From Vampirovibrio chlorellavorus (GTDB lineage: Bacteria > Cyanobacteriota > Vampirovibrionia > Vampirovibrionales > Vampirovibrionaceae), in the NCBI GenBank assembly GCA_903866275.1, contig CAIPMU010000012.1:6452-70451 (forward strand): DNA of 64,000 bases. The letters run 5' to 3'. The notes under the pieces are model-generated. The model searched no databases. It was not told the origin of the DNA and worked only from the letters and a program-made list of their open reading frames with translations. Below are positions 25,003 to 56,833 of this stretch, piece after piece. A program made the position numbers and the translations under genes. Position 1 is the first letter of the stretch; every line of letters starts with the position of its first letter.

Positions 25003-25036
25003 CTCGGACTTTTTTGAAGCTCGGACTTTTTTGAAG
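25003..25036. repeat. Perfect tandem duplication of the 17-mer CTCGGACTTTTTTGAAG
   Basis: Copies at 25003-25019 and 25020-25036, 18 nt after the stop of the 24524..24985 ORF. Confidence 0.9.
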
Positions 25037-25167
25037 AATTTCATATTTTGCAGCTTTCAACTGACTATTCATCTTGAAAAATTAACCCGTTGGTTTCTCT
25101 CTTTTAAATTTCGGAAAATTCCCTTGCCTATCGCTTTCACCATCAAAAAAATCAAGGATTTAATCTG

Positions 25168-38854: not shown

Positions 38855-39532
38855 CCCCTTCGAAATGTTGAGGGTGCCTGAGTCATGATTCATGGTTTAG
38901 TCCATGTCTTCCGGCTTTTTTATGAGTTGTTTGATGGATTTAATTCTGACTTTTAAAAATGATGATTAAAAATAAAACATGGGGGGTATTACAGTGGAGC
39001 AAGATGGAAGTCAGTTAATAGGGCGTTGTTGGACATCGTCGCCACGGGAAAGATGCTGTTGAGGACAGTACCCGGGTTGCGAGCAGTTGCCATCGCAGGG
39101 ACAGAATCGGATGTTGTCCCGGTCAGTCTGGATGTCTGGTCAGTTATTGATAGGAGCCCGGATGACGCATGTGGAATCCTCAGGATCCTCAACTTCAGCA
39201 GGTCCCGCCTTGGGTCCACTGGCATTGGCTCTCAGGCGCCGATATTCCTCTGGCGCTGAGTGACAGTCAGGAGGATAGTCGCAGGACGCAGCTGGATCCG
39301 GTTCCCAAATGGGAGGCTTTGCGTTTAGTTGAACTGGAGCGGTACCATCGTCAGTTATTTATGTGGCGTCTACTCCAGATGCATTTTAAATTTAACGCCG
39401 TATTTGGCATGATACCTTTTGGGTGTGTCCAAGAATAAGGCATCGTTTTGAGTGATTCGAAGCCGCCCAAAAACTCCTGGAATTGTGCTTATTGCAATCA
39501 ATAGCAGACTAAAGATTTTGTTCAGTCAGATT

Positions 39533-39652
39533 GTGTTTATGATAGCCTGACATGGGTTTCAAATGAATCAATTTTTATGGGTAACATCATATCAGTGGAA
39601 CTTCACCATCACGGGATGGGTGGAGTGAGTATGAGGATTATTTTCAATGGGA
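39533..39652 (+). promoter_or_regulatory. Conserved promoter/leader module, copy 1
   Basis: GTGTTTATGATAGCCTGACATGGGTTTCAAATGAATCAA at 39533-39571 and ATGAGGATTATTTTCAATGGGA at 39631-39652 are near-identical to the module upstream of the 40691 ORF. Spacing to the CDS is the same (115 vs 113 nt). It contains the start of a 20-codon uORF (39631..39693, MRIIFNGTSFIFSGCWAECF) preceded by a GGTGGAG SD. Confidence 0.6.
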
Positions 39653-40177
39653 CTTCATTTATCTTCAGTGGTTGTTGGGCAGAATGCTTTTAATAGTCGT
39701 GGCTCTCGTCGTCAAACGATTGAAAAGCGCCCTGTGGCTCAGCTTCAGGCTTTACCACCTCAGGTGGTGCATGCCGAAACACAGCCTGTGTTGAAGAAAG
39801 ATCACATGCAACGTCGATTTCACTTTCTGGCAACGGCTGCCCCCAGCTTGAAGGACACCCCTAAGCGCCCGGAACCACCGGATGCAACATCGCGGGCTGC
39901 TGCTCAGCCAACCCGCTCCAAAAGTCGGCTGGTGATTATGGAAGATGCAACCGGTAAAATCTGGAATACCCACTTTCAGCTCTGGAATGACGCCAGCAAA
40001 ATTTTGTTGCACATGACCGAGGATGTCAAAAAGGCCTCTTCGCCTCTGGAAGCTGCGGGAATCTTCATGAAATCGGGCGTGGATCTGCATGTCACGGCAC
40101 TGGATGGCTCCGTTCATCAGTTTCGCAATACCTTGGACTTTATTGGGGAACTCCTCAAGAAGATGGGAGGTTCCTAA
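39647..40177 (+). CDS. Hypothetical 176-aa protein, paralog A of a tandem pair
   Basis: Ser/Thr/Gln/Arg-rich N-terminal 60 aa, then a predicted helical C-terminal domain. It has its own terminator, no SD at its ATG, and low-GC context. Confidence 0.5.
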   Translation: MGLHLSSVVVGQNAFNSRGSRRQTIEKRPVAQLQALPPQVVHAETQPVLKKDHMQRRFHFLATAAPSLKDTPKRPEPPDATSRAAAQPTRSKSRLVIMEDATGKIWNTHFQLWNDASKILLHMTEDVKKASSPLEAAGIFMKSGVDLHVTALDGSVHQFRNTLDFIGELLKKMGGS

Positions 40178-40286
40178 TACCCAGAATACAGGTCGATTTC
40201 AGGATTATTGTGCGGGACTTTAATTTTGAAATGGTCGAACTGTATTGAGCAACAATCTACTTCAATAGCGAGCAACGAGAATCAGC

Positions 40287-40316
40287 ACCCTCGGTATGGA
40301 CAGGCCGAGGGTTTTT
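40287..40316 (+). terminator. Rho-independent terminator after paralog A
   Basis: CCCTCGG-tatggacagg-CCGAGGG followed by TTTTTT. Confidence 0.75.
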
Positions 40317-40577
40317 TATGGGCGGGTTTATGCGCTGAGGGTGTCTTTATTGGGCTGATTGCTCTTCAGGGTTATTTTGAGAGGAATGGGTGAGAGTCAT
40401 CCCGAACATTGGACAAATTCCTCTAGAGATAATTTAAATTTAATATCATATTTGGAGCGGTTGCTTTGGTGTTTTCCAGGACCTCCTGAAACAGCGTGCT
40501 AGTGCCAATAGCGCTTGAACTCTGGCTGATGCGTCTAGTATATCCATCAATTTAATAAAAGCTTTGTCAAAAAAATC

Positions 40578-40695
40578 GTGTTTATGTTAGCCTGACAATG
40601 GTTTCATAAAACAATTAGGTTGAAAAAACAACATATAAGCGAATTTCCGCCATCTTTAAATGGCAGGAAATGGAATGAGGAGTATTTCAAATGGG
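40578..40695 (+). promoter_or_regulatory. Conserved promoter/leader module, copy 2
   Basis: GTGTTTATGTTAGCCTGACAATGGTTTCATAAAACAATT and ATGAGGAGTATTTCAAATGGGA. uORF 40675..40722 (MRSISNGNYDVIFAC) has an AGGAAA SD. Confidence 0.6.
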
Positions 40696-41296
40696 AACTA
40701 TGATGTCATTTTCGCCTGTTAGCAGCCTCACACCGGCGCAACCCAAAAAGGGGCTGCTTGCTGGTCGTCAGCAAAGTCCTCTTGTGAAGTCTTCGGTTCA
40801 ACGTCCGACGCAACGGATTCTGGTGGTTCGCGCCCAACAGGAACCCCAGGATAGCTTTAAACCCAAAGCAAAAGAAATTTTGACCCAGGAAGATATTGAT
40901 GCGGTTGTTTTGCCGACTCAGGAAGCTCTGAAAAACCTGCTTGAACAGGTAAAAGTGGATGAGAAGGTCAAAGAGAGTCTGGCCAAGGTCTATGAAGTGA
41001 TTCCGGAAGAGGCTACCAAGACAGCGGTCAGCTCATATGCAAAAACCGGTAAAAATACACTGGATAGCGCCCTTGAAATTTCCAGAGAAGCTATCAATGA
41101 AGCTGCGAACACCAAGTCGCCTGTGAATCTGGTGGGTACCTGGTGGAAAACGTTTACCAAAATGCACTCCCTTGCCCTGAAGACTGGTCTGGAGCATACC
41201 GGTACATCGGCTAAACTGATTAACGATGTATTCAAGTCCAAAAAAGCTGAAGCCCCCGCCGAAGCGCCCAAGGACGACGCTCCCAAAGGCGAATAA
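40691..41296 (+). CDS. Hypothetical 201-aa protein, paralog B of a tandem pair
   Basis: N-terminal S/T/Q/K-rich 60 aa, a helical middle, and an A/P/E/K-rich C-terminus (AEAPAEAPKDDAPKGE). Confidence 0.5.
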   Translation: MGTMMSFSPVSSLTPAQPKKGLLAGRQQSPLVKSSVQRPTQRILVVRAQQEPQDSFKPKAKEILTQEDIDAVVLPTQEALKNLLEQVKVDEKVKESLAKVYEVIPEEATKTAVSSYAKTGKNTLDSALEISREAINEAANTKSPVNLVGTWWKTFTKMHSLALKTGLEHTGTSAKLINDVFKSKKAEAPAEAPKDDAPKGE

Positions 41297-45277: not shown

Positions 45278-46606
45278 ATGTTTGTTGATAAGGCGACCAT
45301 CCATATTAAATCCGGCTCCGGGGGCAACGGCATGGTGGCCTGGCGACGGGAAAAGTATGTTCCGTTTGGTGGCCCGGCTGGTGGCGATGGCGGGAATGGT
45401 GGCGATGTGGTTATTCGGGCCACGAGCAATCTGAATACGCTGATGGACTTTAAGTATCAGTCCATCTTCAAGGCGGAAGACGGCGAAAAGGGTTACATTA
45501 AGAATATGCACGGCAAGAATGGCAAGGATTTGATCATTCTGGTGCCCTGCGGCACCATTGTGCGCGATGCCGACAATGGAAACGCGGTGGCGGATTTGCG
45601 TGAAGAGGGTGATCAGGTATTGGTGGCCAGCGGTGGCCGTGGGGGACGCGGAAACGCCAGCTTCTCTTCCTCTAAGCGTCAGGCTCCCCAGTTCTCCGAA
45701 CCGGGAGAGCCTTGCATTGAGCGGAACATTGAGCTGGAGCTGAAACTGCTGGCCGAAGTGGGCATTATTGGTCTGCCCAACGCCGGGAAGTCGACTTTAA
45801 TCAGCGTTATTAGCGCGGCCAAGCCCAAGATTGCCAACTATCCCTTTACCACCATTGTGCCCAACTTGGGTGTGGTGCGTAAACCCAATGGCGACGGGAT
45901 TGTGGTGGCTGATATTCCCGGACTGGTGGAAGGTGCCAGTGAAGGCGTTGGTTTGGGGCACGAATTTTTGCGCCACGTGGAACGCTGCCGGATGCTAATC
46001 CATCTGGTTGATCTGTCCACGGAGGAATCCGAGGATGTGCTGGGCAATTACGATTTAATCAATCGGGAGCTGGCGCGCTATAACGAGCGACTGTCCAAAA
46101 AACCGCAAATTGCGGTCTTGTCCAAGGCGGATACGGTCAGCGAAGACGTGGTGGACTACTACCGTGATCTGCTGGCAGAAAAGACCGGCGAACGGGTCTT
46201 TATCATCTCCTCTGCCACGCGGGCCGGTGTGGATGATCTGGTGAATTTCGTGATGGCCAAGCTGGATCAGCTGCCACGGGATGAAGAAGTGGTCACACTG
46301 GTGCCTGACTTGAAGGCGTCTAACAATGATGACAGCGAGTTTGAGATCGAACGCCGGGGCAAGGTCTTTATTGTGCGCGGGGGTAAGATTGACCGTCTGT
46401 TCAGTGTGACGGATATGCGAAATCGCGAAGCCAGCGCCCGTCTCATGAACATCCTGAAAGCGATGGGGGTCTACAAGCAATTGGCTCTGGTGGGTGCCGA
46501 GGAAGGCCATATTATTCAAATGGCCGGGCTGGAGTTTGAGTACTTCCCCGATGAGCGTGATTATGAGGAAGAAGCCGAGTACGCGCTGGATGAAGATGAA
46601 GACTAG
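45278..46606 (+). CDS. obg: GTPase Obg with acidic C-terminal extension
   Basis: Obg-fold N-terminus MFVDKATIHIKSGSGGNG, G1 GLPNAGKST, G3 DIPG and G4 SKAD. AGGAAA SD before ATG 45278. Confidence 0.9.
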   Translation: MFVDKATIHIKSGSGGNGMVAWRREKYVPFGGPAGGDGGNGGDVVIRATSNLNTLMDFKYQSIFKAEDGEKGYIKNMHGKNGKDLIILVPCGTIVRDADNGNAVADLREEGDQVLVASGGRGGRGNASFSSSKRQAPQFSEPGEPCIERNIELELKLLAEVGIIGLPNAGKSTLISVISAAKPKIANYPFTTIVPNLGVVRKPNGDGIVVADIPGLVEGASEGVGLGHEFLRHVERCRMLIHLVDLSTEESEDVLGNYDLINRELARYNERLSKKPQIAVLSKADTVSEDVVDYYRDLLAEKTGERVFIISSATRAGVDDLVNFVMAKLDQLPRDEEVVTLVPDLKASNNDDSEFEIERRGKVFIVRGGKIDRLFSVTDMRNREASARLMNILKAMGVYKQLALVGAEEGHIIQMAGLEFEYFPDERDYEEEAEYALDEDED

Positions 46607-46663: not shown

Positions 46664-47776
46664 TCAAGGGGCCGTTTGGTCGCCGGTTTGTGAGTCGATG
46701 CGTCGAGCGCGCTGTTGGTGTCGCTGGTGTTGCTCGTCCAGCTCAAAAATCACGCGAATGATGACATAAGCGGCATACAAAGCGCTCATGGAGAGCTCCC
46801 CGGTTGGATGCAAGCCCACCGATTGCTTTCCTGTGGCAGCGTGGAGAGGGGATTCATGGGCATTGGCTGGCGCCTCTGATTCAGCGCTGGCCGCCGGGGG
46901 ATTTGAATCGGGGCGAAGGGTGATGGCTTTTGGGTTGTCCTTCAGCACGAAGCTGAGATCGATGTGTCCGGCGCCGCCCAGCCCGGTGACGACTTCCTGA
47001 GCAATGGCGGCTGTAAATGCTGTCGCGATGGGTTCATGTTGAACAATGGCGTGCAACGGGGCTCGGCCTTGCGAGCTGAGGGTGATTCTAAATTGCCCCA
47101 GTGTTAAGGTTTCAATGAACAATGCCAGTTGTTCACCGGCTGTGCCAGCGGATTCGCCGCCTTCTCCGCTTCCGGCCGCTTCCTGTCTCAGGGAAAAGGC
47201 TTGCGGGGGATGCAGGGGGTAAGGCAGGTAAAGGTGGATGGCCGCATGCAAGGCCTGACCCGGTGATTGCTTGCTCTGGGCGACCAGTTCACTCAAGGTT
47301 CCGAGGAGCTCTCCCAGTTGGCCGGGGTGTCCGCCGCTCCCTCCGCCTGCGGATTGCAGCAGTTTTAGCAGTTTTTCCCGAGCTTCATCAACGTGGGTGA
47401 GCAGGGCGGCTTGCAGCTCATTCAGGGGGACAGGCGTTTCCGTTTGTAGCAGGGCTTCTAACAGTTCTGGTAATACTGTTTTGGCCATTGTCGGGTTCTC
47501 ATTGGCCAGCATGGCCAGTAGCTGGGCCAGTTCTTTGGGCAGCTTTAACAGGTTCCTCAACAACTGCAGGAGTTGTCCGGGCTGAAGGGCCAGTTCTGCA
47601 TTCAGGGCAGGCGTCAAACTTCCTGTGGGTAGCGCGTGATGCTCCGCTGATGAAGGTTGGTTGGCTGTATGCGGTTCTCCGGACGTACTCAGCGGCTCGC
47701 CCGATGTCGCTCCACGCGATGTGGCAATGGGGTTGGGCTGACCATTGGGTCTGAAGTTGGGGCCAATTTGAGTCAC
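46664..47776 (-). CDS. Protein with a C-terminal FliK-like Flg_hook domain, otherwise low-complexity
   Basis: LTLGQFRITLSSQGRAPLHAIVQHEPIATAFTAAIAQEVVTGLGGAGHIDLSF resembles the hook-length-control FliK C-terminal domain (LGxVxIxL...). I see no other flagellar genes in the window. Confidence 0.45.
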   Translation of the reverse strand: MTQIGPNFRPNGQPNPIATSRGATSGEPLSTSGEPHTANQPSSAEHHALPTGSLTPALNAELALQPGQLLQLLRNLLKLPKELAQLLAMLANENPTMAKTVLPELLEALLQTETPVPLNELQAALLTHVDEAREKLLKLLQSAGGGSGGHPGQLGELLGTLSELVAQSKQSPGQALHAAIHLYLPYPLHPPQAFSLRQEAAGSGEGGESAGTAGEQLALFIETLTLGQFRITLSSQGRAPLHAIVQHEPIATAFTAAIAQEVVTGLGGAGHIDLSFVLKDNPKAITLRPDSNPPAASAESEAPANAHESPLHAATGKQSVGLHPTGELSMSALYAAYVIIRVIFELDEQHQRHQQRARRIDSQTGDQTAP

Positions 47777-48033
47777 GTCGCCTCTTTAAATCGGATTTTA
47801 AATAAAGCGTTCACCCTATTATTCATGAGCCCTGTCAGAATCATAATCACTCTGGCCTTGCTCAAACTAGGGCCTGAAAAAAGTCGTCACTGAAAGACTT
47901 CGCAAGACAGAGTGAATTCATGACTGGTGTGGTATTTAATAAATCAAAATACTCCACCGATTATTTTAGGCGCGATTATCGAGAGGTAGAGCATTGACAA
48001 ATTCCCTTAAATGAGCCCATCTCAATAGGTTTC

Positions 48034-48609
48034 TTATATTTTTAACCAGGAAGGATCATACGTGCTGGAAGGCATAATCCCGCATCCAAACTGCCAGCAA
48101 CTATTGATTTTGATTTGTCCACGCGTGGTTATCATACCATCGTAATATAACTCAAGCGCCACGCCAGAACCGGGACTGGAATTGCCAAAATCGGGATCAA
48201 AGGTCCAGCCGATAAAATGCATGGTCGTTGTCCCGCCGAAAATGGTCGTAGGCGAATATTGCAATATTCCGCCATTCGCCAGTCTCAGACAAGGTGTGCC
48301 TGCAGTACAACTTTGTGTCGGCGCAATCACGGGCCAACCATCGATCGTTGAAGCCGTGTCAATACTCACGTAATTAATATAGGGTGTAATAACGCCAGGG
48401 CCGGTATTGGAACTGACCAAACCATTCAGTTTGGCCTGTTGAAATGCCGCGCTAATCATCCCCATCGTTTCTCGCGTTTTGGCATTATAAGCCTCACTCT
48501 GCTGAGTCACCATGATTTTGGGAATCGTAAAGGTCGCAATAACGCCCAGTATGGCCACTGAAATCAATAACTCAGCCAGGGTAAAGCCTTTTTTCCTGCT
48601 GGAAACCAT
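48034..48609 (-). CDS. Type IV pilin-like protein (prepilin-type N-terminal cleavage/methylation domain)
   Basis: Class III signal MVSSRKKG|FTLAELLISVAILGVIATF and two C-terminal Cys pairs; 191 aa. Confidence 0.75.
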   Translation of the reverse strand: MVSSRKKGFTLAELLISVAILGVIATFTIPKIMVTQQSEAYNAKTRETMGMISAAFQQAKLNGLVSSNTGPGVITPYINYVSIDTASTIDGWPVIAPTQSCTAGTPCLRLANGGILQYSPTTIFGGTTTMHFIGWTFDPDFGNSSPGSGVALELYYDGMITTRGQIKINSCWQFGCGIMPSSTYDPSWLKI

Positions 48610-48802
48610 ATCGGAAACACCCTCTTAATAGACCTTGGGGACGCTCAATAAAAAAGCTATTATAATACCTATTATAGCATACCTCATAGGTTTTAGAACC
48701 CCTTAAACTTTAGGGGTTAACCCACCAATGGGCCAATTGGGATTGCTGGCGTTATTGTCCAAGGCGTATCAGAACCTGGGGCAAATAGAATGCTGAAAGA
48801 CA

Positions 48803-48832
48803 AAGACGTTGTAGGGTGAGCTACAACGTCTT
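48803..48832 (-). terminator. Strong hairpin (12-bp perfect stem) downstream of the giant-protein gene; probable terminator
   Basis: AAGACGTTGTAG-ggtgag-CTACAACGTCTT. On the minus strand it is followed by a TGTCTTTC T-rich run, about 100 nt past the 48930 stop. Confidence 0.5.
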
Positions 48833-48929
48833 GATGCCTCGATTTTAAATCGGGTTTATTTAACATCGGTCAAATTCATTTAAATGAACATAAAACGAAT
48901 ATTGACAGGGGGTGCTTTTATATATTTCC

Positions 48930-51698
48930 CTATAAGATTGCAAAGTCCCCTTGATTGACCGGTGTTGGTGTTTCAGCGGGTACAGCCGGTACAAATTCTG
49001 AAACGGGTACCTTTACTCCGCCGATGTTGATAGATTCAACGTCACTGAAAATGACGGTATCCGTACCATTCACCGCAATGAAAGTCTTGCCTTGGTCATT
49101 GGAGGTGATTTTCCAATCCTGGATAGTTCCATTCAGATCAATGCTGTCATCGCCAGCGCCACCATTAAAGAGATAATTGTTATGATCGCCTGCTGATACG
49201 ATGACTGTATCACTATTAGAGCCACCGGTAATCACCCCAGTATTACCAGAACCACCATTCAGGCCAGTAATCGTCTCTGTGGACAGCGCGCTGTTATTTG
49301 AATTGAACGTGTTATCTGCACCGCCCAGGTTGACTTGGTCGTTATTAACAAGACGTGCGCGATTTGAATTACCATCAATGGTCACGACACCCGTATTGGC
49401 TTGGGCCCGCACTTCGTTATTACTGCCTGTAATAGTGACAGGGCCAGCGTTATTTTTGGCTATATTTTTACCATTGGTGTTAGTCTGTGCAACGCTATAG
49501 TAACCCATGGCCTTGTTATTGCCACCGTTACTCGCTTGAACAACAGAGGGCAATTGAGCAACAGAGGGCGAGTTTGTTACTGGTGTTGTGAATGTGGTGA
49601 ATTTGGATGACCCGTCAGTCAAAGTTTGTTCGTCATTTGCGAATTGCGGAGTGTTGATGGTTGGTTGATTTGCACCAATTGGTGGCTGATCTGCGCCAGT
49701 CGGCAGGGGTGCTTCTGTTGTGACCTGGGTTTGTTCTTGAGGGACGTTTGAACGGACAAACGGATTTGCTTTGTCTGTTGTAGGCCCTGCCACCGTGCTT
49801 CCTCCGGTAGTACTGAATGGGCTTACTGTTGGCGCAGCGGTATAAACGTCATCAAAAGTGGTTCCAGGGAGCACGCCACCGTTCTCTGCCTGTTTATTTT
49901 TTAGGTCGGCCTCAATCTGTGCAGGCGTGAATCCGTGTTGTTTCTCATAGCCTGCTATTGCGGTCACCTGAGGTGCTGCAAAAGAAGTGGAACGACCTAC
50001 TGCCACGATATCACCAGGTCCAGAGTCATTGTTGAGATGATTATTCTCGTCTGCAGATGCCACTGTAACGGCGGAGTCGGGAGCGAGTTGATTGGGCTTG
50101 TCAGGCCCAAAGTTGTCGGCTGCTACAACCACGGGAATGCCTAGAGTGGTTAGTTGATCGATTTGTTCCTGTACCTTTTTTGATTGTGGAGTTTGTGATG
50201 ATTGTTCCTGCGATAGGTTAACCGCATCGACGCTGTTAGGATCTTGCTTAGCTCGTGTCGCAATTTTACCCAGTGCATCGGCGATCACTTGCGTTCTATT
50301 GCTGTCATTGCCGACATTGACGTTGACATCATGAACCTTTATTTTGACTTTTGCCTCTAAATTGGGCTGATTGCCCCCTTTCTGAATGATACTGCTGACA
50401 GTTTCACCGTGGTTGAAACCCTCACCATTCTGGTTTTGCTGCCCAGGGTTCTTGAGATCGGGGTTAAAATCATCGACCACAAAAACATCAACAGGGTCAG
50501 GTTTGTTAACGACACCGTTATTTGTTTGAGCAACCTGGGTTTGCTCTTGGGTAACGTTTGGACTGACAAAAGGGTTTGCCTTGTCTGCGCCAGGCTTCAG
50601 GCCAGCTTGGGTGAGGGAGGTTTGAGGCGCTTGCAGTGCTTCACCACCGGCCAATAGAGCTTTATTGACTCCCTCACTGGCGCCGTTTTTATCACCATAG
50701 AAACCCGCTTGTGCTCCCTTAAAACCGGCTTGTGCGCCTTGAAGCCCTTTTTGCACGCCTTCAGGTGAGCCAATAATGCCTGCAACAACGCCACTTGAGC
50801 CAGCAGCGGCTCCGATTGCGCCAGAAAGAGCGCCCGCGATGGATCCTGAAACTCCAGCTACTGAACCTTCAGCACCAGAAATAGCACCTTCGATGGACCC
50901 TGCAGCCAAAGCGGCCTGGCCTGCGGCGGCGGAAGCCAAAGAGGTATTCAGAGCATCTCCTGAATATGCTGCCGCAGCTGCGCCTACGGCAGCACCTACA
51001 GCGCCCTGAGCTGCACCTATGGCGCCCTGACCAGGAGCTCCCCCAAAGGCCACGTTGTCACCGTGTTGATTGGTTTGTTTGACTTGGGTGACACCTACAG
51101 CCGTGTTTGTTCCATCAACGTTGCTTTGAGAACCTTGACCTGCGCTCCAGAGTACGTTCTCACCAGAATGAGTGTCTTGTGCGGCGATACCGATATTATT
51201 CGCTTTATTAGCGCCAACAGTCGTGCTCTGAGTTAAGTTTCCGACCTTAGAAGCTCTATTATCACCATTGAAATTTGCTTGACCACCCACCCCAGCATCT
51301 TGCAGGGTATTGGCACCATGCTGGTTAAATTGCGTTCCTGATCCAATGAGGGCTGCGGAATTTTCGCCCGTGTGATTGCCTTGGAGGCCAGATCCAGTTT
51401 GAAGAAGCGTGTTTTTACCATCCGCATTTTCCTGTAAGGCCTTTGCGACTTGAGCGCCACTATTGGCACCTGTTTGGTTCTTTTGAATCAAATAGGAACC
51501 TGCCCCCAGTTGAGCAGCCTTATTATCACCCTGAGTGTCTTTTTGGGTCGTGACTTGCGCAGGCTTGGGACTTGGGGAGCTGTTGACTGGAACTTGTGAC
51601 GGATTCGAAGCCGGCTTTTCTGTGGGTGCTTGTTTGACCGTTTGTTTTTTATGATGGGGTGCTGGGGTTGGTGTAGCTCCAATTCCAGAAATACTCAT
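48930..51698 (-). CDS. 922-aa secreted multi-domain protein: Gly/Ala-rich repeats, subtilisin-like (S8) domain, C-terminal RTX/hemolysin-type Ca-binding repeats; probable T1SS substrate
   Basis: No N-terminal signal peptide. An S8-like catalytic set is present: D (VFVVDDFNP), H (NHGETV), N (VVVAADNFG) and S (GRSTSFAAPQV). The C-terminus has GGxGxD-type repeats (GGSGNTGVITGGSNSDTVIV...NGGAGDDSIDLNG). Confidence 0.65.
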   Translation of the reverse strand: MSISGIGATPTPAPHHKKQTVKQAPTEKPASNPSQVPVNSSPSPKPAQVTTQKDTQGDNKAAQLGAGSYLIQKNQTGANSGAQVAKALQENADGKNTLLQTGSGLQGNHTGENSAALIGSGTQFNQHGANTLQDAGVGGQANFNGDNRASKVGNLTQSTTVGANKANNIGIAAQDTHSGENVLWSAGQGSQSNVDGTNTAVGVTQVKQTNQHGDNVAFGGAPGQGAIGAAQGAVGAAVGAAAAAYSGDALNTSLASAAAGQAALAAGSIEGAISGAEGSVAGVSGSIAGALSGAIGAAAGSSGVVAGIIGSPEGVQKGLQGAQAGFKGAQAGFYGDKNGASEGVNKALLAGGEALQAPQTSLTQAGLKPGADKANPFVSPNVTQEQTQVAQTNNGVVNKPDPVDVFVVDDFNPDLKNPGQQNQNGEGFNHGETVSSIIQKGGNQPNLEAKVKIKVHDVNVNVGNDSNRTQVIADALGKIATRAKQDPNSVDAVNLSQEQSSQTPQSKKVQEQIDQLTTLGIPVVVAADNFGPDKPNQLAPDSAVTVASADENNHLNNDSGPGDIVAVGRSTSFAAPQVTAIAGYEKQHGFTPAQIEADLKNKQAENGGVLPGTTFDDVYTAAPTVSPFSTTGGSTVAGPTTDKANPFVRSNVPQEQTQVTTEAPLPTGADQPPIGANQPTINTPQFANDEQTLTDGSSKFTTFTTPVTNSPSVAQLPSVVQASNGGNNKAMGYYSVAQTNTNGKNIAKNNAGPVTITGSNNEVRAQANTGVVTIDGNSNRARLVNNDQVNLGGADNTFNSNNSALSTETITGLNGGSGNTGVITGGSNSDTVIVSAGDHNNYLFNGGAGDDSIDLNGTIQDWKITSNDQGKTFIAVNGTDTVIFSDVESINIGGVKVPVSEFVPAVPAETPTPVNQGDFAIL

Positions 51699-51887
51699 GC
51701 TCTCTCTCCTATTTTTGAATTTTTTGCGCTAAAGCCACAGGTTTTAAGTCTCTATTAAAATATTAAAAACAAATATATAGGAAGGAATTGCCTTGAGATT
51801 TAAGATGGATATAAGGAATTGTTAGTTTTTCTTAATAGTTTGACTAGAGCGTGTTTGTTATGGCACCCCTATAATCAGAAGGCTGTC

Positions 51888-51966
51888 ATGCCTGTGAACG
51901 CAGGCATCCATCTCGCCTTTGACCTGAAAGCCAAGCCGCACAATGGATTCCCGCGTTCGCGGGAAT
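51888..51966. repeat. Two perfect palindromic hairpin elements in the AT-rich spacer
   Basis: ATGCCTG-tgaacg-CAGGCAT at 51888-51907 and ATTCCCGCG-tt-CGCGGGAAT at 51947-51966. Confidence 0.7.
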
Positions 51967-52637
51967 GACAAGCCTTCAGCCATTTGTAACTGATAACATG
52001 CCCTGGCCAATCCACCACTGCTGTTTTAAAGTTAATTCGGTAAGATTGAATCAACTTATATGCTGACTGTTCTGACCGCAAAATCTGGAAACACAGGCGT
52101 CAAGTAGCCCTGGTTGTTTTGCCGCTTTGCGTCATAGAGCGATTTCACATCGCTGCATCGTGTGAATGCTTCACCGTGATGGTTGAGCATATCAGGATTG
52201 GATTAAGGCTCAATGTATAAAAGGGCATCGCTAAATCTCTGAAGCCTTTTAGCGCCGACTTGAGCATAACCGGCGGGATATTGGCAGGCTTTTGATTCTA
52301 CAACCCCTGATTCGTTTGGATACGTTGAGGAAAAGTTGAAATCTGCAATGAATTTTACCAATCAAACACCAATCAAACATGGGGCACTTTGGGCATGGAA
52401 GCTTTTACCCTTTTTGGCCAAAGCCCCTAAAATGTGACCTTGATAGGTTTTCAATAATTGTTTTTTTGAATGGAGGTTTTGGGCGCATCAATTTCGCTGC
52501 ACTGGTTTTATACCAGCAGATGCAATAGAACCAGAAAATCTCAATTCCAATCCAAGGTTGACGACAGCCGAAACAGCTTCGTTTTTTCGGTATTGCCCGT
52601 TTCCTGTTAAACATTGAATGAATGGGAGTGATCCACA

Positions 52638-52973
52638 ATGAGTCTTAGTCCAAGTAGCTTTAGATATTCGTCGTCTTTTGCCAGACCCGAGGGAAATCGC
52701 CCACCCAAGTTGAGTCCCCAGAAGAGAGCGACTGAATTTGCGATCTCGGTTCCTGCCGCTGCCCTGAATACGGGCAAGGCAATCATGAAGGGACTCATTT
52801 TCACCGCTGTTACTACCACGGGGCTGGCTAAAACCGGGCATCCTCTGCTGGCTGGATTGGCTGGTGCGGTCGAGGTGGTCGGCACTATTCCTTATGCGGC
52901 CCTGAAAGGGTGTGCCAGTTTTTACGGTCACGTTAAAACCGGTGTCACTGGGCGCCCGCCGGGTGAAAAGTAA
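52638..52973 (+). CDS. Small membrane protein with glycine-zipper-like segment
   Basis: GLIFTAVTTTGLAKTGHPLLAGLAGAVEVVG; 111 aa. Confidence 0.4.
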   Translation: MSLSPSSFRYSSSFARPEGNRPPKLSPQKRATEFAISVPAAALNTGKAIMKGLIFTAVTTTGLAKTGHPLLAGLAGAVEVVGTIPYAALKGCASFYGHVKTGVTGRPPGEK

Positions 52974-53211
52974 CGGGTAACCTGAATCGTCAAACAGAAA
53001 GCGTTCAGCAGGTCTGGACGCTTTCTGTACTTCAATGGTTGCTCAGTGAAGCGGGGGCGGTTTTAAAAATCCTGTTTATCAAGCATGCTAATGGATCGGG
53101 ATGTGCTCGTCTGAATCTCTTGTAGAAGACTAAGATTTAAGTAGGCACAAAATTTTTTCACGGGTTTTTATTCAGCAGAACCCTGTCCTTAACCCTCATG
53201 GAGTCCACATT

Positions 53212-53607
53212 ATGGTACTCAACGCTTCTTCTTCTCGGAATCATTGTGCCAGCAGTTGTCCGGTTGCGACCACTAAGGCTGGCTCTGCCACGTTGCCTCA
53301 GTCTGGGGCTCAGTCAGCGCCTGATAGCTTTCGTAATAAAACGAATGCTCAGCCACGGTTTGGTGGTGGTGACTCGGAAACACTGGTTCAAAAGCCCGGT
53401 TTTCTGAAAAAAACGTTTGCCACCAGTTTGGGTGTGTTGTCCGGGATTGGTTTGGCCATCGGTGTCCCGCTGGGCCTTCTGCAATTGGCGGTAGGACTAG
53501 TCTTTCATCCTTTACTGATTACCGGCCTGATCACGATGGCGATTCCCGCGGCAGGACTGTTTGGTGCCTGGTTGCTGGGCCGAGAAAAGACTGTCACTAA
53601 AAGTTAA
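53212..53607 (+). CDS. Small membrane protein, compositional paralog of the 52638 ORF
   Basis: LGVLSGIGLAIGVPLGLLQLAVGLVFHPLLITGLITMAIPAAGLFGAWLLG; 131 aa. Confidence 0.4.
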   Translation: MVLNASSSRNHCASSCPVATTKAGSATLPQSGAQSAPDSFRNKTNAQPRFGGGDSETLVQKPGFLKKTFATSLGVLSGIGLAIGVPLGLLQLAVGLVFHPLLITGLITMAIPAAGLFGAWLLGREKTVTKS

Positions 53608-53738
53608 GTGTTCAGCGATCCGCTGCCAAAAAATTCAGAACAAAACGCCCAAGCTCTCAGGCTTGGGCGTTTTGGCTTTAAAAATGGGGCATCTGCAGAC
53701 AGAGTGCCCCTTAAAGGTCAGATGACTGTGCTTTGGGT

Positions 53739-54020
53739 CTAGGTTGACTTGAAGCGTCGGATTCGGGAGGGTCCTTCGCCCTGGTCATTCTGGGAAGGCG
53801 GGGTGTCATTGTCGCTGGACTCTTCGTCGTGGTCTACCAATTGCAGGTGTCGCTTGAATTCAACATAGAAGCCACAGTTCTTGACCAGAACATCCCCTTC
53901 CAGATGAGCGACTCCCACGGCCAGCGCTTCCAGCAGAGGACACATCACCCCTTTGAGAAAGTACTCGCAGGAGTAACATTGGTCTTCTTCTTCAATATGG
54001 ACGCTACCGTCGTAAAACAT
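53739..54020 (-). CDS. Hypothetical 93-aa protein with CxxC...C motif and acidic tail
   Basis: DQCYSCEYFLKGVMCPL. Confidence 0.35.
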   Translation of the reverse strand: MFYDGSVHIEEEDQCYSCEYFLKGVMCPLLEALAVGVAHLEGDVLVKNCGFYVEFKRHLQLVDHDEESSDNDTPPSQNDQGEGPSRIRRFKST

Positions 54021-54638
54021 GGTGGATCATTGTTCCTTCGTTCAAGGTGTTTTGTAATTTCAGAAGCGGTTGAGCGGCCTGACGTCGGGTTAAAGGGGGA
54101 TGAATCATCTGGCCGGAATGCGTGTTTAGCCTTGTTGGGCCGCTTTAGTTCAAAAAGTATACCGACTATCTTATTATAGATCCGCTGTCGGTGAATTTAA
54201 AGTAGTCGTCTGGTTATGAAGTCCCAAAAACTTCAGTTTAAAATTGCGGCCTTATGGCTGAGCGTGTTTACCTACTACATCTTAAATATTGATGTTTACA
54301 ATGTGTTACAATCTGCCGGTTTTCCGTAAAAACGTTGACATTTGTTACACTCGGGCCAGAACCGACGGTGCCTGATCGCTGGTTGAAGGTGTTGATTTTG
54401 CGTGAATGATGGTAAAAATCCCTTCGACTTTCCCGCTTTTGTCGTACTCTGTAAGGAGAACGCTGGCTGGGACTTCGGATGATCGAAAACCTGCCGGGCT
54501 TTGCGTGATATTCGGTTCAGTGTCTCAGGGTTGTTCCTGGTTTTTTCATTGGGATGAGAGAGTCCTTTGAGCCGGTTCATCGTATCGTTGAGGATTGGTA
54601 AGCTGTTTGAAGCTCAGGAATGAGGGAATAGAAACACG

Positions 54639-56249
54639 ATGGATGTGTTAAAAAGCAGTATTAACATCAGTGATCCGACCTATCTGGAGAACCATGAGGC
54701 CATGTCTGCCCTGGTGGCCGACCTGAAAGCCCGTGTGAGTCAGGTAAAACTGGGCGGGGGCGAAGTGGCTGTCCAGCGCCACACCAGCCGGGGTAAACTC
54801 TTCGTGCGGGATCGCATTGAAGCACTGCTGGATGCGGATACGCCGTTTCTGGAATTTAGCGCACTCGCTGCGACAGATATTTACGATAACGCAGCCCCCA
54901 GTGCGGGCATTATTACAGGCATCGGGCAGGTGCATGGTACCCAGTGCGTCATTGTGGCCAACGATGCCACGGTGAAAGGCGGCTCTTACTACCCGCTCAC
55001 GGTTAAAAAACACCTGCGCGCTCAGGAGATTGCCCTAGAGAACGGCCTGCCTTGTATCTATCTGGTGGATTCCGGCGGGGCCTTTTTACCCTTGCAGGAT
55101 GAAGTGTTCCCGGATAAAGAACACTTTGGGCGGATTTTTTACAATCAGGCGCGTATGTCTGCCAAGGGGATTCCTCAGATTGCGGTGGTGATGGGTTCTT
55201 GCACCGCGGGCGGCGCTTATATTCCGGCCATGTGCGATGAAAGTGTGATCGTGCGGAATCAGGGTACCATTTTTCTGGCCGGGCCTCCGCTGGTAAAAGC
55301 CGCGACCGGAGAAGAAGTCAGTGCTGAAGATCTGGGTGGGGCCGATGTGCACTGCCGGACTTCGGGGGTGACCGATCATTATGCGCTGGATGATGAGGAC
55401 GCCATCGCCATCACCCGCAACATTGTGCAGAACCTGAACCGTCGTCCACAGGCCGTTCTTTCGCAGGATGTCCCGGAGGATCCGCTGTTTGATCCCCATG
55501 AGATCTACGGCATCATCCAGAAAGATATTCGCAAACCCTACGATGTCCGCGAAGTGATTGCCCGTCTGGTGGATGGTAGCCGCTTTCACGAGTTTAAGGC
55601 ACTGTATGGCACCAGTCTGGTGACTGGCTTTGCCCGTATCTGGGGTTATCCGGTGGGGATTGTGGCCAACAACGGCGTGCTCTTCTCGGAAAGCGCCATG
55701 AAGGCAACTCACTTTATTGAGTTGTGCAGTCAACGGGGCATTCCGTTGGTCTTTTTGCAAAATATCACCGGGTTTATGGTGGGTCGTCAGTACGAATCCG
55801 GCGGGATTGCCCGGGATGGCGCCAAGATGGTAATGGCTGTGTCGAATGCGGCAGTCCCCAAGTTTACCGTGATCATTGGCGGCTCCTATGGCGCGGGCAA
55901 TTACGGCATGTGTGGTCGCGCTTTTGGCGCCCGACAGCTCTGGATGTGGCCCAATGCCCGCATCTCGGTGATGGGCGGCGAACAGGCGGCAAACGTCTTG
56001 CTCACCGTCAAGAAAGACCAGCTGGCCGCACAAGGCAAACCGGCCATGTCCACTGAGGATGAGGAAACGTTTAAAGCGCCCACCCTGGAAAAGTACGCCC
56101 GCGAGAGCAGCGCCTACTATAGCAGTGCCCGGCTTTGGGATGATGGCGTAATTGACCCGGCGGATACCCGAACGGTATTGGGGCTGGGCATTGCCGCCGC
56201 CCTGAACGCGCCTTTTCCGGCCCGCGAACATGGGGTTTTCCGGTTCTAG
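54639..56249 (+). CDS. Acyl-CoA carboxylase carboxyltransferase subunit (methylcrotonyl-/propionyl-CoA carboxylase beta-chain family)
   Basis: Two crotonase-fold CT halves and a conserved G(G)xYG(A)GNY region ([13 protein letters not shown]); 536 aa. Confidence 0.8.
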
Positions 56250-56251
56250 GG

Positions 56252-56833
56252 CTAAATCAGGCTTTTGCTCATGTAGTGGTAGTGTTCGCCATCAAAGCCG
56301 TTGCGTTCGTAAACACGAATGGCGCGAGCGTTGGCTTTCTCCACGTAAAGGCGCAGTTCGCGACCGCCTGTAGAGGCCGCGGCTTGTTCCAGCGTGTGTA
56401 GTATCTGTTCAAAGACGCCTTTTCCGCGATGCTCCGGTTGAATGTAGAGGCTTTGAATCCACCAGTAGGACGCGTTGTGCCAGTCGCTCCACTCCAGCGT
56501 AATCAAGGTGCAGGCAATGGGCACCTGCCCCAGTTCTGCGACCCAATAGGTGCCCAGCGCGGGATTGTTAAATACGGCACGAATGCCCGCCAGCAGGGTG
56601 TCCGGGTTGAGTTGCATGCCTTCGCTCTCCCAGGCCATGGCCAGAATGAGCGTGGCCAGCCCCTCGGTTTCCTCCGGGCGGGCAGGGCGAATATGTAAGC
56701 CGGTCCGATCATCGGTTGATCCTGAGGTCGTGGGGCTGACGGCTGGCTGGCTGTGTGGCACAGGCAACCCAGTAGACGCCGGAAAGGAGGTGTTAGGTTG
56801 GGAAGGGTCAGCAGGATGCGGCAAGTTTGTCAT
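56252..56833 (-). CDS. GNAT-family N-acetyltransferase
   Basis: QPEHRGKGVFEQIL acetyl-CoA-binding motif. The N-terminal about 45 aa is Pro/Ser-rich and may be non-coding. Confidence 0.65.
   Translation of the reverse strand: MTNLPHPADPSQPNTSFPASTGLPVPHSQPAVSPTTSGSTDDRTGLHIRPARPEETEGLATLILAMAWESEGMQLNPDTLLAGIRAVFNNPALGTYWVAELGQVPIACTLITLEWSDWHNASYWWIQSLYIQPEHRGKGVFEQILHTLEQAAASTGGRELRLYVEKANARAIRVYERNGFDGEHYHYMSKSLI

Follow-up and report, generated by a model that had tools for sequence, protein, structure and literature searches.

Flagella, type IV pili and a T4SS have been reported for Vampirovibrio chlorellavorus, and delivery of hydrolytic enzymes to its prey has been proposed (Soo et al., 2015, PMC4451040); its fliK gene is annotated within fliJ-fliK-flgD-flgE (PMC4451040 Table S3). 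Here we analyzed a stretch of 64,000 nucleotides (the window) from a MAG of the Vampirovibrionales, a group of non-photosynthetic relatives of cyanobacteria. An earlier sequence-only reading had described the interval between obg and an acyl-CoA carboxyltransferase (CT) gene in this window as a low-GC accessory island of ~8 kb.

Results

The housekeeping flanks were confirmed where the sequence-only reading had placed them: obg (GTPase ObgE; 45278-46606, + strand) on the left, by Pfam GTP1_OBG (E=1.6e-62) and NCBIfam NF008955 (ObgE; E=1.1e-161), and CT (54639-56249, + strand) on the right, by Carboxyl_trans (E=1.1e-159). The genes between them are real, and p370, pilin191, p922, p111, p131 and p93 were also called on the source contig by an independent gene caller. 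The closest relative that we found, L090, encodes Obg and CT proteins 94% and 96.6% identical to those of the window; together with L091, a second assembly of the same relative, it is the sole case with full synteny. Both carry the order LMWPc-PGbinding-GNAT-CT-p93-p131h-p111h-338aa-p370h-obg-M23-5'NT, and protein identities between L090 and the window were 97% for CT, 96% for p93, 55% for p131, 33% for p111, 62% for p370 and 94% for Obg. At the variable gene, the 338-aa protein of L090 (L090-338) was 48% identical to p922, in the C-module only. DNA identity to L090 (blastn) was ~80% in the flanks; between 47.79 and 53.14 kb, nothing but a few short patches was detectable. The window has pilin191, the N-terminal expansion of p922 and its central protease cassette, all of them missing at the L090 locus. 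The more distant L002, L092, L093, L097 and L098 retain M23-obg-p370 only. Obg-p370 on the left and p93-CT on the right constitute a conserved frame of native composition around an interior of ~6 kb (47.8-53.7 kb), whose genes have low GC3 and diverge quickly.

Measured against 28 annotated genes (GC3 0.642±0.039), p370 (0.60) and p93 (0.617) were normal, whereas pilin191 (0.50), p922 (0.414, even across its modules), p111 (0.53) and p131 (0.49) were low. The proposed low-GC island hence narrows to ~47.8-53.7 kb (GC3 0.41-0.53), and the reading as an accessory island is borne out in part only: the interior is low in GC and fast-evolving, but p370 and p93 are of normal composition and the gene order is the same in L090. 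In L090, the 338-aa homologue has a GC3 of 0.454 versus ~0.70 in its neighbors, so that low GC3 in the variable gene is a standing property of the locus and not the mark of a fresh import; an older acquisition still short of host composition would also fit such persistence. Elsewhere in the window, GC falls to a comparable extent at 6-7, 25-26 and 40-41 kb.

These data bear on whether a genomic island was acquired horizontally between obg and CT. The four interior genes lie 3-6 SD below the annotated genes in GC3 and the spacers are AT-rich, as an island would predict; however, low GC3 is common to the L090 homologue and to hypothetical genes at 24.5-25.8 kb (less so at 39-41 kb), and p370 and p93 are conserved with native composition. 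A palindromic repeat element in a spacer, the fact that L090 has neither pilin191 nor the protease cassette here, and a protease relative next to a Tn3 transposase and resolvase in L086 also fit acquisition, yet the locus holds no integrase, transposase or other mobility domain, no tRNA gene, and no att-like or flanking direct repeat. Plasmid matches were absent, viral-contig matches were weak (26-34% identity), PADLOC gave no match and PHROG no informative match. Finally, the sequence-only reading had itself set conserved gene order against a horizontal island, and the order CT-p93-p131-p111-X-p370-obg is the same in L090 and L091, including homologues of p111, p131 and the C-module. This leaves an island mostly unsupported, and we consider it unlikely; the interval is probably a vertically inherited, lineage-specific Vampirovibrionales neighborhood that is neither a recent import nor one operon.

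Within this neighborhood, each interior gene is apparently its own transcription unit, given that p922, p111 and p131 each have a hairpin 3' of the gene and that pilin191 is preceded by a promoter-like region. The AT-rich spacers with palindromes noted earlier were borne out: GC was 0.39-0.45, and the hairpins at 48803-48832, 52994-53028 and 53641-53674 all stand directly 3' of stop codons. The palindromic repeat element, located in the 939-bp spacer upstream of p922 (51885-51998), forms a long hairpin (-46.9 kcal/mol) and has copies in other spacers of L090 (845-959 and 2643-2686); no second copy was found within the window. One Logan contig terminates inside this element.

On the CT side of the interior, p111 (52638-52973, + strand) is a small Gly-rich protein whose gene is followed by the hairpin at 52994-53028 (inverted repeat I13); it matched no Pfam or NCBIfam family and was 33-36% identical to a 119-aa L090 protein at the same position. 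The membrane-like p131 (53212-53607, + strand), followed by the perfect 14-bp hairpin at 53641-53674 (I14), has a conserved hydrophobic C-terminal half and was 55-61% identical to a 145-aa L090 protein, the last ~80 residues being nearly invariant. The two had been taken for paralogous Gly-zipper mini-proteins; both are small, Gly-rich and hydrophobic, but neither BLASTP (E=0.014) nor hhalign (probability 6.5%) supported paralogy. As described earlier, p93 (53739-54020, - strand) is a 93-aa Cys-containing (CxxC) protein; its gene, part of the conserved frame, is divergent from CT. It had no family match and was 95.7% identical to its L090 counterpart, with DNA around it ~80% identical. The p93-CT intergenic region (54021-54638), which had no Rfam match, lies mostly within the ~80%-identical L090 block (blastn 53739-56692); its first ~310 nt match in all frames in tblastx, with matches fading towards CT, and this pattern points to conservation at the DNA level.

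On the obg side, p370 (46664-47776, - strand) lies outside the variable low-GC segment and is Vampirovibrionales-specific: its homologues form 30 clusters, all those with a source name being Vampirovibrio, and it adjoins obg in 9 of the 11 contexts examined. It is thus a Vampirovibrionales core neighbor of obg. The claim that p370 resembles the FliK C-terminus (Flg_hook) did not hold up in profile searches, in which neither p370 nor any of its 30 homologues matched Flg_hook. Its C-terminal domain may still be T3S4 (FliK/PscP)-like, and if p370 carried a T3S4 switch domain and belonged to the FliK/YscP type, the locus could be tied to flagellar type III export, with p922 and its small standalone relatives (mini-subtilases) as substrates. 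The layout of p370 is FliK-like (a conserved N-terminus, then a disordered stretch rich in Pro and Gln, helices, and a small domain of the alpha/beta type), and hhalign sets TLGQFRITLSS...LHAIVQHE of p370 on ELGQVHISLKL...LQMVSPHS of Salmonella FliK (2rrl) with E=0.03 but a probability of 1.7%; Foldseek and HMM searches of the PDB with p370 returned nothing. The proposed substrates have Ser/Pro/Thr/Asn-rich N-termini without a signal peptide, and among the mini-subtilases just 2 of 81 have a hydrophobic signal-like segment and Asp+Glu make up 3.6% of the first 25 residues, a composition that may resemble that of T3SS signals. Furthermore, a FlgE/FlgG-type gene adjoins the p370 homologue in L097; the window itself, however, has no flagellar genes, and a fliK gene is already annotated in V. 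chlorellavorus, in the cluster cited above. We therefore regard a flagellar export locus as improbable.

The largest interior gene, p922 (48930-51698, - strand), has an AGGAG-type RBS upstream and encodes a 922-aa mosaic without a signal peptide. No full-length relative was present among 1.84 billion representatives, and no other protein with the same architecture was found. Residues 76-220 (51039-51473, - strand) consist of some nine repeats, each 17 residues long, with the pattern xGxNxxxxxGxxxQxNx (autocorrelation z=9.3 at lag 17 and z=10.8 at lag 34), for which no relatives were found beyond L090-338 (p922 residues 86-213 against its residues 23-153: a weak match, 31%, E=3e-4). A Gly/Ala-rich, glycine-zipper-like heptad region follows at residues 226-360 (50619-51023, - strand; period 7, z=7.4), without a counterpart in L090-338. 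AF2 modeled the N-terminal and zipper modules at very low confidence, with pLDDT ~30 in the repeats and low-confidence helices in the zipper.

An 18-residue motif lies on either side of the protease domain as a direct repeat (family D1): DKANPFVSPNVTQEQTQV at residues 372-389, just before it (50532-50585, - strand), and DKANPFVRSNVPQEQTQV at residues 642-659, after the domain and linker 626-641 (49722-49775, - strand). The copies, 810 nt apart, share 84% nucleotide identity and differ at 6 synonymous versus 3 non-synonymous codons, which suggests constraint on the peptide. The C-terminal module (residues 736-904; 48987-49493, - strand) is beta-rich with two GGxGxD-like turns and is common to L090, being 48% identical to residues 164-330 of L090-338 (E=5e-37); L090 also has a decayed second copy. 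AF2 gave strands here (pLDDT 40-70). The module matched DUF3060 weakly (E=0.003), and residues 801-914 matched P0120 (E=2e-4), which itself matches RTX-type NCBIfam models. HemolysinCabind was not detected in p922 in profile scans, where the RTX assignment made earlier falls short of curated thresholds, and the C-terminal region showed no significant periodicity; of the four earlier domain calls, two (this one and Flg_hook) did not survive profile searches. L090-338 aligns with both ends of p922 but not with residues 214-735. p922 sits where L090 has this 338-aa repeat-plus-beta-module protein, and differs from it by more 17-residue repeats and a central cassette of ~520 residues, made up of the Gly/Ala zipper, a reduced subtilase and the 18-residue motif on either side of the latter.

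The reduced, S8-like catalytic domain spans residues 403-625 (49824-50492, - strand). Of the earlier description of p922 as a signal-less S8-like/RTX protein, the S8 part holds for the isolated domain only: a full-length Pfam scan gave no Peptidase_S8 match, and residues 395-640 by themselves gave E=3e-10 (40.4 bits versus a cut-off of 21.8). AF2 pLDDT was 88-98 over most of residues 401-630, and the top 50 Foldseek matches in the PDB were all subtilases (probability 1.0), with intracellular subtilisin 2x8j at rank 10. The candidate catalytic residues D409 (50472-50474), H430 (50409-50411) and S572 (49983-49985) and the candidate oxyanion residue N529 (50112-50114), all on the - strand, recur in 86 of the 86-88 members of the family. 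The model and this conservation show a subtilase fold with conserved catalytic residues. The family is rare (~85 clusters); its members are mostly standalone and signal-peptide-less with the catalytic residues kept, and nearly all are short and lack the other p922 modules. Genes of standalone relatives adjoin tig-clpP-clpX.

Immediately downstream on the same strand, pilin191 (48034-48609, - strand) encodes a type IV pilin/pseudopilin-like protein (N_methyl, E=1.8e-7; TIGR02532, E=4.4e-7) with a prepilin site, KKG|FTLAELL, and Glu at +5. The profile match and the G|FTLAE motif, the sole prepilin motif in the window, uphold the earlier call of a prepilin-type protein. TATAAT-like boxes and an RBS upstream indicate that pilin191 apparently has its own promoter, and a terminator-like hairpin (48803-48832, - strand; 12-bp stem, then a T-rich tail) separates it from p922. 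That pilin191 and p922 act jointly as a pilus-associated protease/adhesin module seems highly unlikely to us. They are neighbors on the same strand, share low GC3 and are both missing from this locus in L090, but they are kept apart by a strong hairpin and promoter-like sequence, and p922 has no prepilin motif. Moreover, the pilin191 orthologues of L092, L093 and L098 (41-44% identical, with a near-identical N-terminal helix, 2-6 kb from p370) stand beside other small genes without a p922-like neighbor, and the protease relatives examined are not beside N_methyl genes, one locus having a Flp-type pilin gene ~10 kb off. Instead, pilin191 is probably a dispersed type IV pilin gene unrelated to p922 and served by pilus machinery elsewhere.

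Discussion

As stated earlier, the window contains no flagellar, T1SS or pilus-assembly genes, none appearing in Pfam scans of large ORFs or in the annotation of 39-61 kb. The earlier proposal of a secreted protease/adhesin served by machinery elsewhere is compatible with p922, because its subtilase core looks intact, it has repeat and beta-rich modules and no Sec signal, and secretion genes are lacking in the window. It is likely a secreted or surface protease-adhesin with a non-Sec exit. Export could proceed by type I secretion (RTX-like C-terminus), a T4SS or the flagellar export apparatus, all with machinery encoded beyond the window. In that case, the repeat modules might bind calcium or a surface while the subtilase cuts targets. 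The 18-residue motifs on either side of the subtilase may also be sites at which it cleaves p922, an idea based on 18 codons. We infer from these features that p922 may be exported, catalytically active and self-processing, and may act at the cell surface or in predation.

We consider it quite unlikely that p922 and its relatives act in the cytoplasm as intracellular-subtilisin-type proteases, or that p922 is a decaying fusion; in either case the interior would have no secretion role. The proximity of standalone relatives to tig-clpP-clpX, which are protein quality-control genes, would suit a cytoplasmic protease, but the mini-subtilase genes are divergent from tig and ~600-700 bp away, and so outside the clp operon. 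Decay would agree with the second C-module copy in L090 and with the very low AF2 confidence for two thirds of p922, yet the 922-codon ORF is intact, recorded identically on 8 contigs, and its catalytic residues are conserved. Fusions to LysM or DUF4214 in a few protease relatives, the link of the C-module through P0120 to RTX-type modules, and the fast divergence of standalone orthologues (46-71% identical versus 81-98% for their neighbors) are hints of an extracytoplasmic role. Although p922 does without both a signal peptide and a propeptide (I9), as would a cytoplasmic protease akin to the intracellular subtilisins, represented by 2x8j among the Foldseek matches, a secreted or surface protease-adhesin is still the preferred reading.

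Gene order between obg and the carboxyltransferase gene is shared with the closest relative found

The stretch comes from a Vampirovibrionales (Melainabacteria) metagenome-assembled genome (MAG), and the interval analyzed here is bounded on the left by obg (45278-46606; GTP1_OBG at E=1.6e-62 and the ObgE equivalog at E=1.1e-161) and on the right by a carboxyltransferase gene (54639-56249; E=1.1e-159). Between them lie genes for proteins that we name by their length in residues: p370 (46664-47776, minus strand), pilin191 (48034-48609, minus), p922 (48930-51698, minus), p111 (52638-52973, plus), p131 (53212-53607, plus) and p93 (53739-54020, minus). The flanks agree with an earlier reading of the sequence alone (the sequence-only reading), and an independent gene caller returned the same calls. 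That reading had also taken the small proteins p111 and p131 for paralogues, a relationship that our comparisons did not support, and no paralogues of interval proteins were found elsewhere in the window.

Among GTDB species representatives, the closest was a Vampirovibrionales MAG, with 68% identity in Obg. A nearer relative, available as two assemblies (L090 and L091), was found via P0013, a homologue of p370; its Obg and carboxyltransferase are 94% and 96.6% identical to the window proteins. Read from the right flank, L090 carries LMWPc, PG-binding, GNAT and carboxyltransferase genes, genes for 93-, 145-, 119- and 338-aa proteins, and then the p370 homologue, a 139-aa ORF, obg, M23 and 5'-nucleotidase genes, and across the interval this gene order is that of the window. 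Protein identity between window and L090 is 95.7% for p93, 62% for p370, 55% for p131 and 33% for p111, and the 338-aa protein (L090-338), the counterpart of p922, matches only part of it. The two loci differ at the interval only in pilin191, which has no orthologue at the L090 locus, and in part of p922. At the DNA level the flanks are ~80% identical, and similarity is undetectable across 47.79-53.14 kb except for a few short patches. In the more distant relatives L002, L092 (V. chlorellavorus), L093, L097 and L098, the M23-obg-p370 block is kept and different genes lie beyond it.

The p93 protein contains a CxxC motif and two further Cys residues and had no family match; its 95.7% identity to the L090 counterpart compares with ~80% for the surrounding DNA. 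Its gene (53739-54020) and the carboxyltransferase gene are divergently transcribed. The 618-bp spacer between them is largely conserved, and most of it falls within the ~80%-identical block common to L090. L091, the second assembly of the L090 genome, has a stretch of unknown residues, caused by N bases, inside the 338-aa gene (L091, 5681-6556), which suggests that the variable slot is hard to assemble.

The low-GC interval is a conserved frame with a fast-evolving interior

The interval had been proposed to be a low-GC accessory island, possibly acquired horizontally. Compared to 28 Pfam-annotated genes (GC3 0.642±0.039, minimum 0.545), GC3 was low in p922 (0.414, uniform over its three parts at 0.39, 0.44 and 0.43), p131 (0.49), pilin191 (0.50) and p111 (0.53), but normal in p370 (0.596) and p93 (0.617), and spacer GC was 0.39-0.45, with one short spacer at 0.50. 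The compositional dip is thus real, but narrower than claimed. Comparable GC dips occur elsewhere in the window, at 6-7, 25-26 and 40-41 kb. Clusters of hypothetical genes without a Pfam match lie at 24524-25839 (GC3 0.45-0.47) and 39169-41296 (about 0.50-0.52); several of their proteins have N-termini rich in Gln/Pro/Ser, and L090 has a syntenic counterpart of the set at 39-41 kb. Since other hypothetical genes are low as well, low GC3 seems to be a general mark of lineage-specific genes in this genome. In L090, the 338-aa gene has a GC3 of 0.454 vs ~0.70 in its neighbours.

Searches of the region for integrase and transposase genes, tRNAs and convincing flanking repeats found none; direct repeats spanning the interval were short, ~76% identical and chance-like, and the window as a whole has no tRNA genes. 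An empty site with the flanks directly adjacent was not seen in L090/L091, which retain homologues of p93, p131, p111 and the C-terminal module of p922. The shared gene order and the lack of mobility genes, tRNA and repeats in the region contradict a recent insertion. Taken together, synteny, absence of these markers and the low GC3 of the L090 gene argue for a conserved frame around a fast-evolving interior. A defence island or prophage was also considered and rejected, with 0 matches in PADLOC and only generic pilin matches in PHROGs. The interval resembles classical genomic islands in its local drop in GC and GC3, its lineage-specific genes and its site between housekeeping genes. Unlike them, it has no integrase, tRNA or direct repeats, its boundary genes p370 and p93 are native, and its gene order is common to the closest relative found. 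As an island the interval is therefore largely ordinary, a conserved, variable locus and not a new mobile element.

The perfect palindromes described in the spacers by the sequence-only reading do exist, in the form of terminator-type hairpins just past stop codons: after p922 (48803-48832), after p111 (52994-53028) and between the convergent p131 and p93 (53641-53674). These hairpins and a promoter-like region upstream of pilin191 suggest that the interval genes are monocistronic. A ~100-nt palindromic repeat element (51885-51998) that folds at -46.9 kcal/mol lies in the 939-bp spacer upstream of p922; its ends are inverted (AGGCTGTCAT...ATGACAAGCCT) and it has two hairpins inside, reads MDSRVRGNDK in one frame, and has copies in L090 (845-959 and 2643-2686) in different spacers than the window copy. 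One Logan contig ends within this element. Pseudogene remnants in the 939-bp spacer were discarded as an explanation, tblastx giving nothing beyond the repeat element and one conserved patch of 45 nt, as was an ncRNA or riboswitch in the spacers, the whole interval being without an Rfam match at E<=1. The only Rfam family of the window is the bacterial small SRP RNA (RF00169; 33899-33998, minus strand, 58.6 bits).

p922 carries a reduced subtilase domain

Full-length p922, which the sequence-only reading had described as S8-like, matched nothing in HMMER scans of Pfam, NCBIfam or PDB sequences. The S8 call did hold when residues 395-640 were searched alone: they matched Peptidase_S8 (PF00082) at E=3e-10 (40.4 bits vs a gathering threshold of 21.8; profile positions 35-273 of 288), with a weak thermitase match as well. 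Precomputed annotation lists no domain for p922. The biased composition of its repeat and Gly/Ala regions may mask the S8 match in the full-length protein, and for long, compositionally biased proteins domain scans are worth repeating on sub-segments.

The subtilase core spans residues 403-625, with D409, H430, oxyanion N529 and S572 in subtilisin order. An AlphaFold model built with homologues from the mini-subtilase family described below as the alignment had pLDDT values of 88-98 over most of residues 401-630 and was unstructured elsewhere. In a Foldseek search of the PDB, all of the best 50 matches were subtilases, among them proteinase K, Tk-subtilisin, PCSK9 and an intracellular subtilisin; the best had E=3.8e-6, probability 1.0 and a TM-score to the target of ~0.5. 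An AGGAG-type ribosome-binding site lies ahead of the p922 start codon, the N-terminus (MSISGIGATPTPAPHHKKQ...) is without a hydrophobic signal segment, and no Inhibitor_I9 propeptide was matched in p922 or its relatives. Intracellular subtilisins have neither a signal peptide nor an I9 propeptide, so these are not strict requirements of the S8 family. By the same token p922 may be cytoplasmic, with an intracellular-subtilisin-like role.

The p922 domain belongs to a rare family of signal-less mini-subtilases

HMMER, run exhaustively against 1.84 billion representatives, returned 84 proteins at E<=0.001. With two exceptions these cover only p922 residues ~350-650 and nearly all are short (~170-510 aa), and we refer to these ~85 clusters as mini-subtilases; residues 1-345 matched nothing in the same search. 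In an alignment of 88 members, the catalytic residues were kept almost throughout among aligned relatives (Asp in 86/86, His in 86/87, Asn in 86/88 and Ser in 86/88), and only 16 of the 88 reached Pfam S8 at E<=1e-3. Two members are fused to LysM and two to DUF4214. A hydrophobic, signal-peptide-like N-terminal segment was present in only 2 of 81 relatives, and Ser, Ala, Pro, Gly, Asn, Thr and Gln are abundant in the first 25 residues of the relatives, where Asp+Glu make up 3.6%.

Three standalone orthologues occupy a fixed slot (L082, 10001-10741; L083, 10001-10867; L088/L089, 3601-4440), with tig-clpP-clpX on one side and a Gfo/Idh/MocA oxidoreductase and alanine racemase on the other. Within this slot the mini-subtilases are 46-71% identical vs 81-98% for their neighbours (Tig 81-93%, ClpP 95-98%). 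At another locus (L086, 5522-10136; GCA_902168245.1), the mini-subtilase P0008 directly adjoins resolvase and Tn3-family transposase genes, so at least one family member may ride on a transposon. A tblastn search of plasmids with the protease domain gave no match, and weak matches on viral contigs (26-34% identity) are probably generic S8 proteases. What is new is a rare clade of reduced subtilases that have neither signal peptide nor propeptide and that standard full-length annotation misses, together with the one-of-a-kind architecture of p922.

The remainder of p922 is a mosaic of repeats, duplicated motifs and a beta-rich module

p922 is on record in identical form for 8 contigs (ENA/NCBI and Logan assemblies); a word-indexed homologue search with p922 found only the protein itself, and a metagenome scan found no relative. 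Ahead of the protease domain, residues 76-220 form about nine 17-residue repeats (z=9.3 at lag 17 and 10.8 at lag 34) and residues 226-360 a glycine-zipper-like Gly/Ala heptad (lag 7, z=7.4); behind it, residues 736-904 form a beta-rich module (the C-module). An 18-residue motif, DKANPFV(S/R)(P/S)NV(T/P)QEQTQV, occurs once on each side of the protease domain (residues 372-389 and 642-659), as a 55-nt direct repeat with copies 810 nt apart. The copies differ by 6 synonymous vs 3 non-synonymous codon differences, a small sample, which hints that the peptide and not the DNA alone is maintained. Recombination between them would excise the protease domain and leave the zipper in place.

L090-338 aligned to the C-module (48% identity, E=5e-37) and weakly to residues 86-213 (31%, E=3e-4), and showed no alignment to residues 214-735. 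Therefore, either p922 is L090-338 extended by further N-terminal repeats and by a ~520-residue cassette in its centre, or the cassette has been lost from L090. Downstream of the 338-aa gene, L090 (8900-9500) holds a decayed second copy of the C-module (..GGPGTDTLLLAGSGWKVTCTDGKNFTATNG..) and, broken up by stop codons, an EF-hand-like fragment (DFNGIDKNHDSKLSLQELTEYYK); the decayed copy is a further sign of turnover in this slot.

The C-terminal region had been assigned to the RTX (HemolysinCabind) proteins. Neither PF00353 nor the NCBIfam RTX models were found in p922, searched at full length or in pieces, and the L090 homologue stayed below threshold (16.4 vs 23 bits). The p922 C-terminus has two nonapeptide-like turns, GGSNSDTVI and GGAGDDSID, and its periodicity at lags 9-11 was not significant (z<=2.1). 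The sole profile link to RTX was indirect: residues 801-914 matched P0120 (E=2e-4), a protein that itself matches RTX-type NCBIfam models. With no profile match and no significant 9-residue periodicity, RTX membership of p922 was rejected.

p370 is an obg-linked family and pilin191 a dispersed prepilin

Where a source name is attached to a p370 homologue, it is Vampirovibrio, V. chlorellavorus included, and the gene adjoins obg in 9 of 11 contexts. From the N-terminus, the family has a strongly conserved MSxIGPNFRPP, a disordered Pro/Gln-rich stretch and a helical region, followed by an invariant YLPxYPLHPPQAFSLR, a small alpha/beta domain and a C-terminal helix; AlphaFold was confident only at residues 190-280 and 330-365. 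A metagenome scan with the family returned three loci, one of them long. A motif common to p370 and the mini-subtilases, M-S-x-I-G, was set aside, a rough hand estimate being not far above its composition-chance frequency.

p370 had been read as a FliK-like (Flg_hook) protein, a call that failed in profile searches, with 0 matches to Pfam Flg_hook or NCBIfam FliK profiles at E<=1 in p370 and its 30 homologues. Foldseek with p370 gave nothing (best E 0.31), nor did the family HMM against PDB sequences. When hhalign was given the C-terminal sequence of Salmonella FliK taken from PDB 2rrl, p370 TLGQFRITLSS...LHAIVQHE paired with ELGQVHISLKL...LQMVSPHS at E=0.03 and a probability of 1.7%. On an 840-kb Vampirovibrionales contig (L097), the p370 homologue has a FlgE/FlgG-type flagellar hook/rod gene (8197-9396; Flg_bb_rod, LlgE_F_G_D1, Flg_bbr_C) as its immediate, divergently transcribed upstream neighbour, the sole such context. 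V. chlorellavorus has a separate annotated fliK within fliJ-fliK-flgD-flgE (Soo et al. 2015, PMC4451040 Table S3). Unlike the FliK/YscP/PscP rulers, p370 is tied to obg-M23 and not to a flagellar operon, and it has no profile or Foldseek match. Given the profile failures and the separate fliK, the FliK idea is a weak lead with several agreeing hints, unsupported as a call.

The prepilin assignment of pilin191 was borne out (N_methyl E=1.8e-7; TIGR02532 29.5 bits vs 16.3). Its prepilin site falls between MVSSRKKG and FTLAELLISVAILGVIATFTIPK (KKG before the site, FTLAELL after it), with Glu at +5. Like type IV pilins and pseudopilins such as GspG, ComGC and PilA, the 191-aa protein has Gly-1, Phe+1, Glu+5, a hydrophobic N-terminal helix and Cys in its C-terminal half; unlike named pilins, it falls under the equivalog cut-off of every named family and stands alone, with no assembly genes near. 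Orthologues in L092, L093 and L098 are 41-44% identical, with a near-identical N-terminal helix, and lie 2-6 kb from p370. Many dispersed prepilin genes have been reported in V. chlorellavorus (PMC4451040 Table S3), and pilin191 is one of this type. In V. chlorellavorus-like genomes, the orthologue follows conserved small genes (~165, 122, 210 and 124 aa; L092, 3985-7704; L098, 2174-6393; L093, 2537-4432), of which one product has a signal-peptide-like and one a hydrophobic, membrane-like N-terminus, with 0 prepilin motifs.

The absence of flagellar, type I secretion and pilus-assembly genes from the window, noted in the sequence-only reading, was confirmed by Pfam on the large ORFs elsewhere and by precomputed annotation of 39-61 kb, and no prepilin peptidase or assembly ATPase/platform gene was found in the window. 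The large ORFs elsewhere encode glycosyltransferases, purine-synthesis enzymes, AspRS, a histidine kinase and similar proteins. An Adhesin_E-like protein (12145-12666; E=3.7e-10) and a pentapeptide-repeat protein (38120-38854; E=3.4e-44) are also encoded in the window.

A possible role for the locus and comparison with known systems

To our knowledge, no relatives of cyanobacteria other than the Vampirovibrionales are known to be predatory. Members of this group are also pests of algal cultures, and their attack on prey has been deduced almost wholly from annotation. As a site of fast-evolving signal-less proteins, the interval is a candidate attack or surface locus. p922 is a candidate protease that is predicted to be exported and may be self-processing. 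Export would rely on machinery encoded outside the window. One candidate is type I secretion, through the RTX-like C-terminus ending ..GDFAIL. Another is a T4SS, and a subtilisin-like protease of Streptococcus suis has reportedly been found to be secreted by such a system. A T4SS has been proposed to deliver hydrolytic enzymes to prey (Soo et al., PMC4451040). Flagellar type III export is a further candidate. Outside the cell, p922 could act as a protease-adhesin, perhaps cutting itself at the duplicated motifs.

A bolder reading joins three proposals: p922 as a self-processing effector polyprotein of a predatory Vampirovibrionales bacterium, the mini-subtilases as an unrecognized class of non-Sec effectors, and p370 as a switch. 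The protease would cut the two conserved DKANPFV..QEQTQV motifs, so that a repeat/zipper module, the protease itself and a beta-module that binds calcium are set free; the ~85-cluster subtilases would be effectors delivered by flagellar T3SS, T4SS or T1SS; and the p370 family linked to obg might provide a second switch protein of the T3S4 type, tied to that export. As a whole, we consider this combination improbable. Should the mini-subtilases be exported as effectors, prey-cell degradation would be a candidate function for them, and they would be small subtilases that fold without a propeptide.

Like the subtilases proteinase K, thermitase, Tk-subtilisin and PCSK9, the p922 domain has an alpha/beta fold, the Asp-His-Ser order and an oxyanion Asn, with VVDDF, NHGE, AADN and STSFAAP as equivalents of DTG, HGTH, AAGN and GTSMAxP. 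Unlike them, its core has ~220 residues vs ~270-300 and sits mid-way in a 922-aa mosaic with a copy of the 18-residue motif on each side, and in contrast to classical secreted subtilases it is without a Sec signal or I9 propeptide. p922 differs from RTX type I substrates (serralysin-type proteases, RTX adhesins) in its two nonapeptide-like turns at most and in the absence of ABC/MFP/TolC genes from the window. It resembles them in having no N-terminal signal, in a beta-rich C-terminal module with turns that is rich in Gly/Asp/Asn, and in an end formed by a hydrophobic tail behind an acidic residue. Serratia Ssp, Neisseria NalP and Bordetella SphB1 are self-processing subtilase autotransporters or surface maturases; these carry a Sec signal at the N-terminus and a beta-barrel translocator at the C-terminus, p922 has neither, and its self-cleavage is a prediction. 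What p922 would have in common with them, and what serves as our working model, is a subtilase fused to non-catalytic surface or passenger modules that cuts itself or surface proteins.
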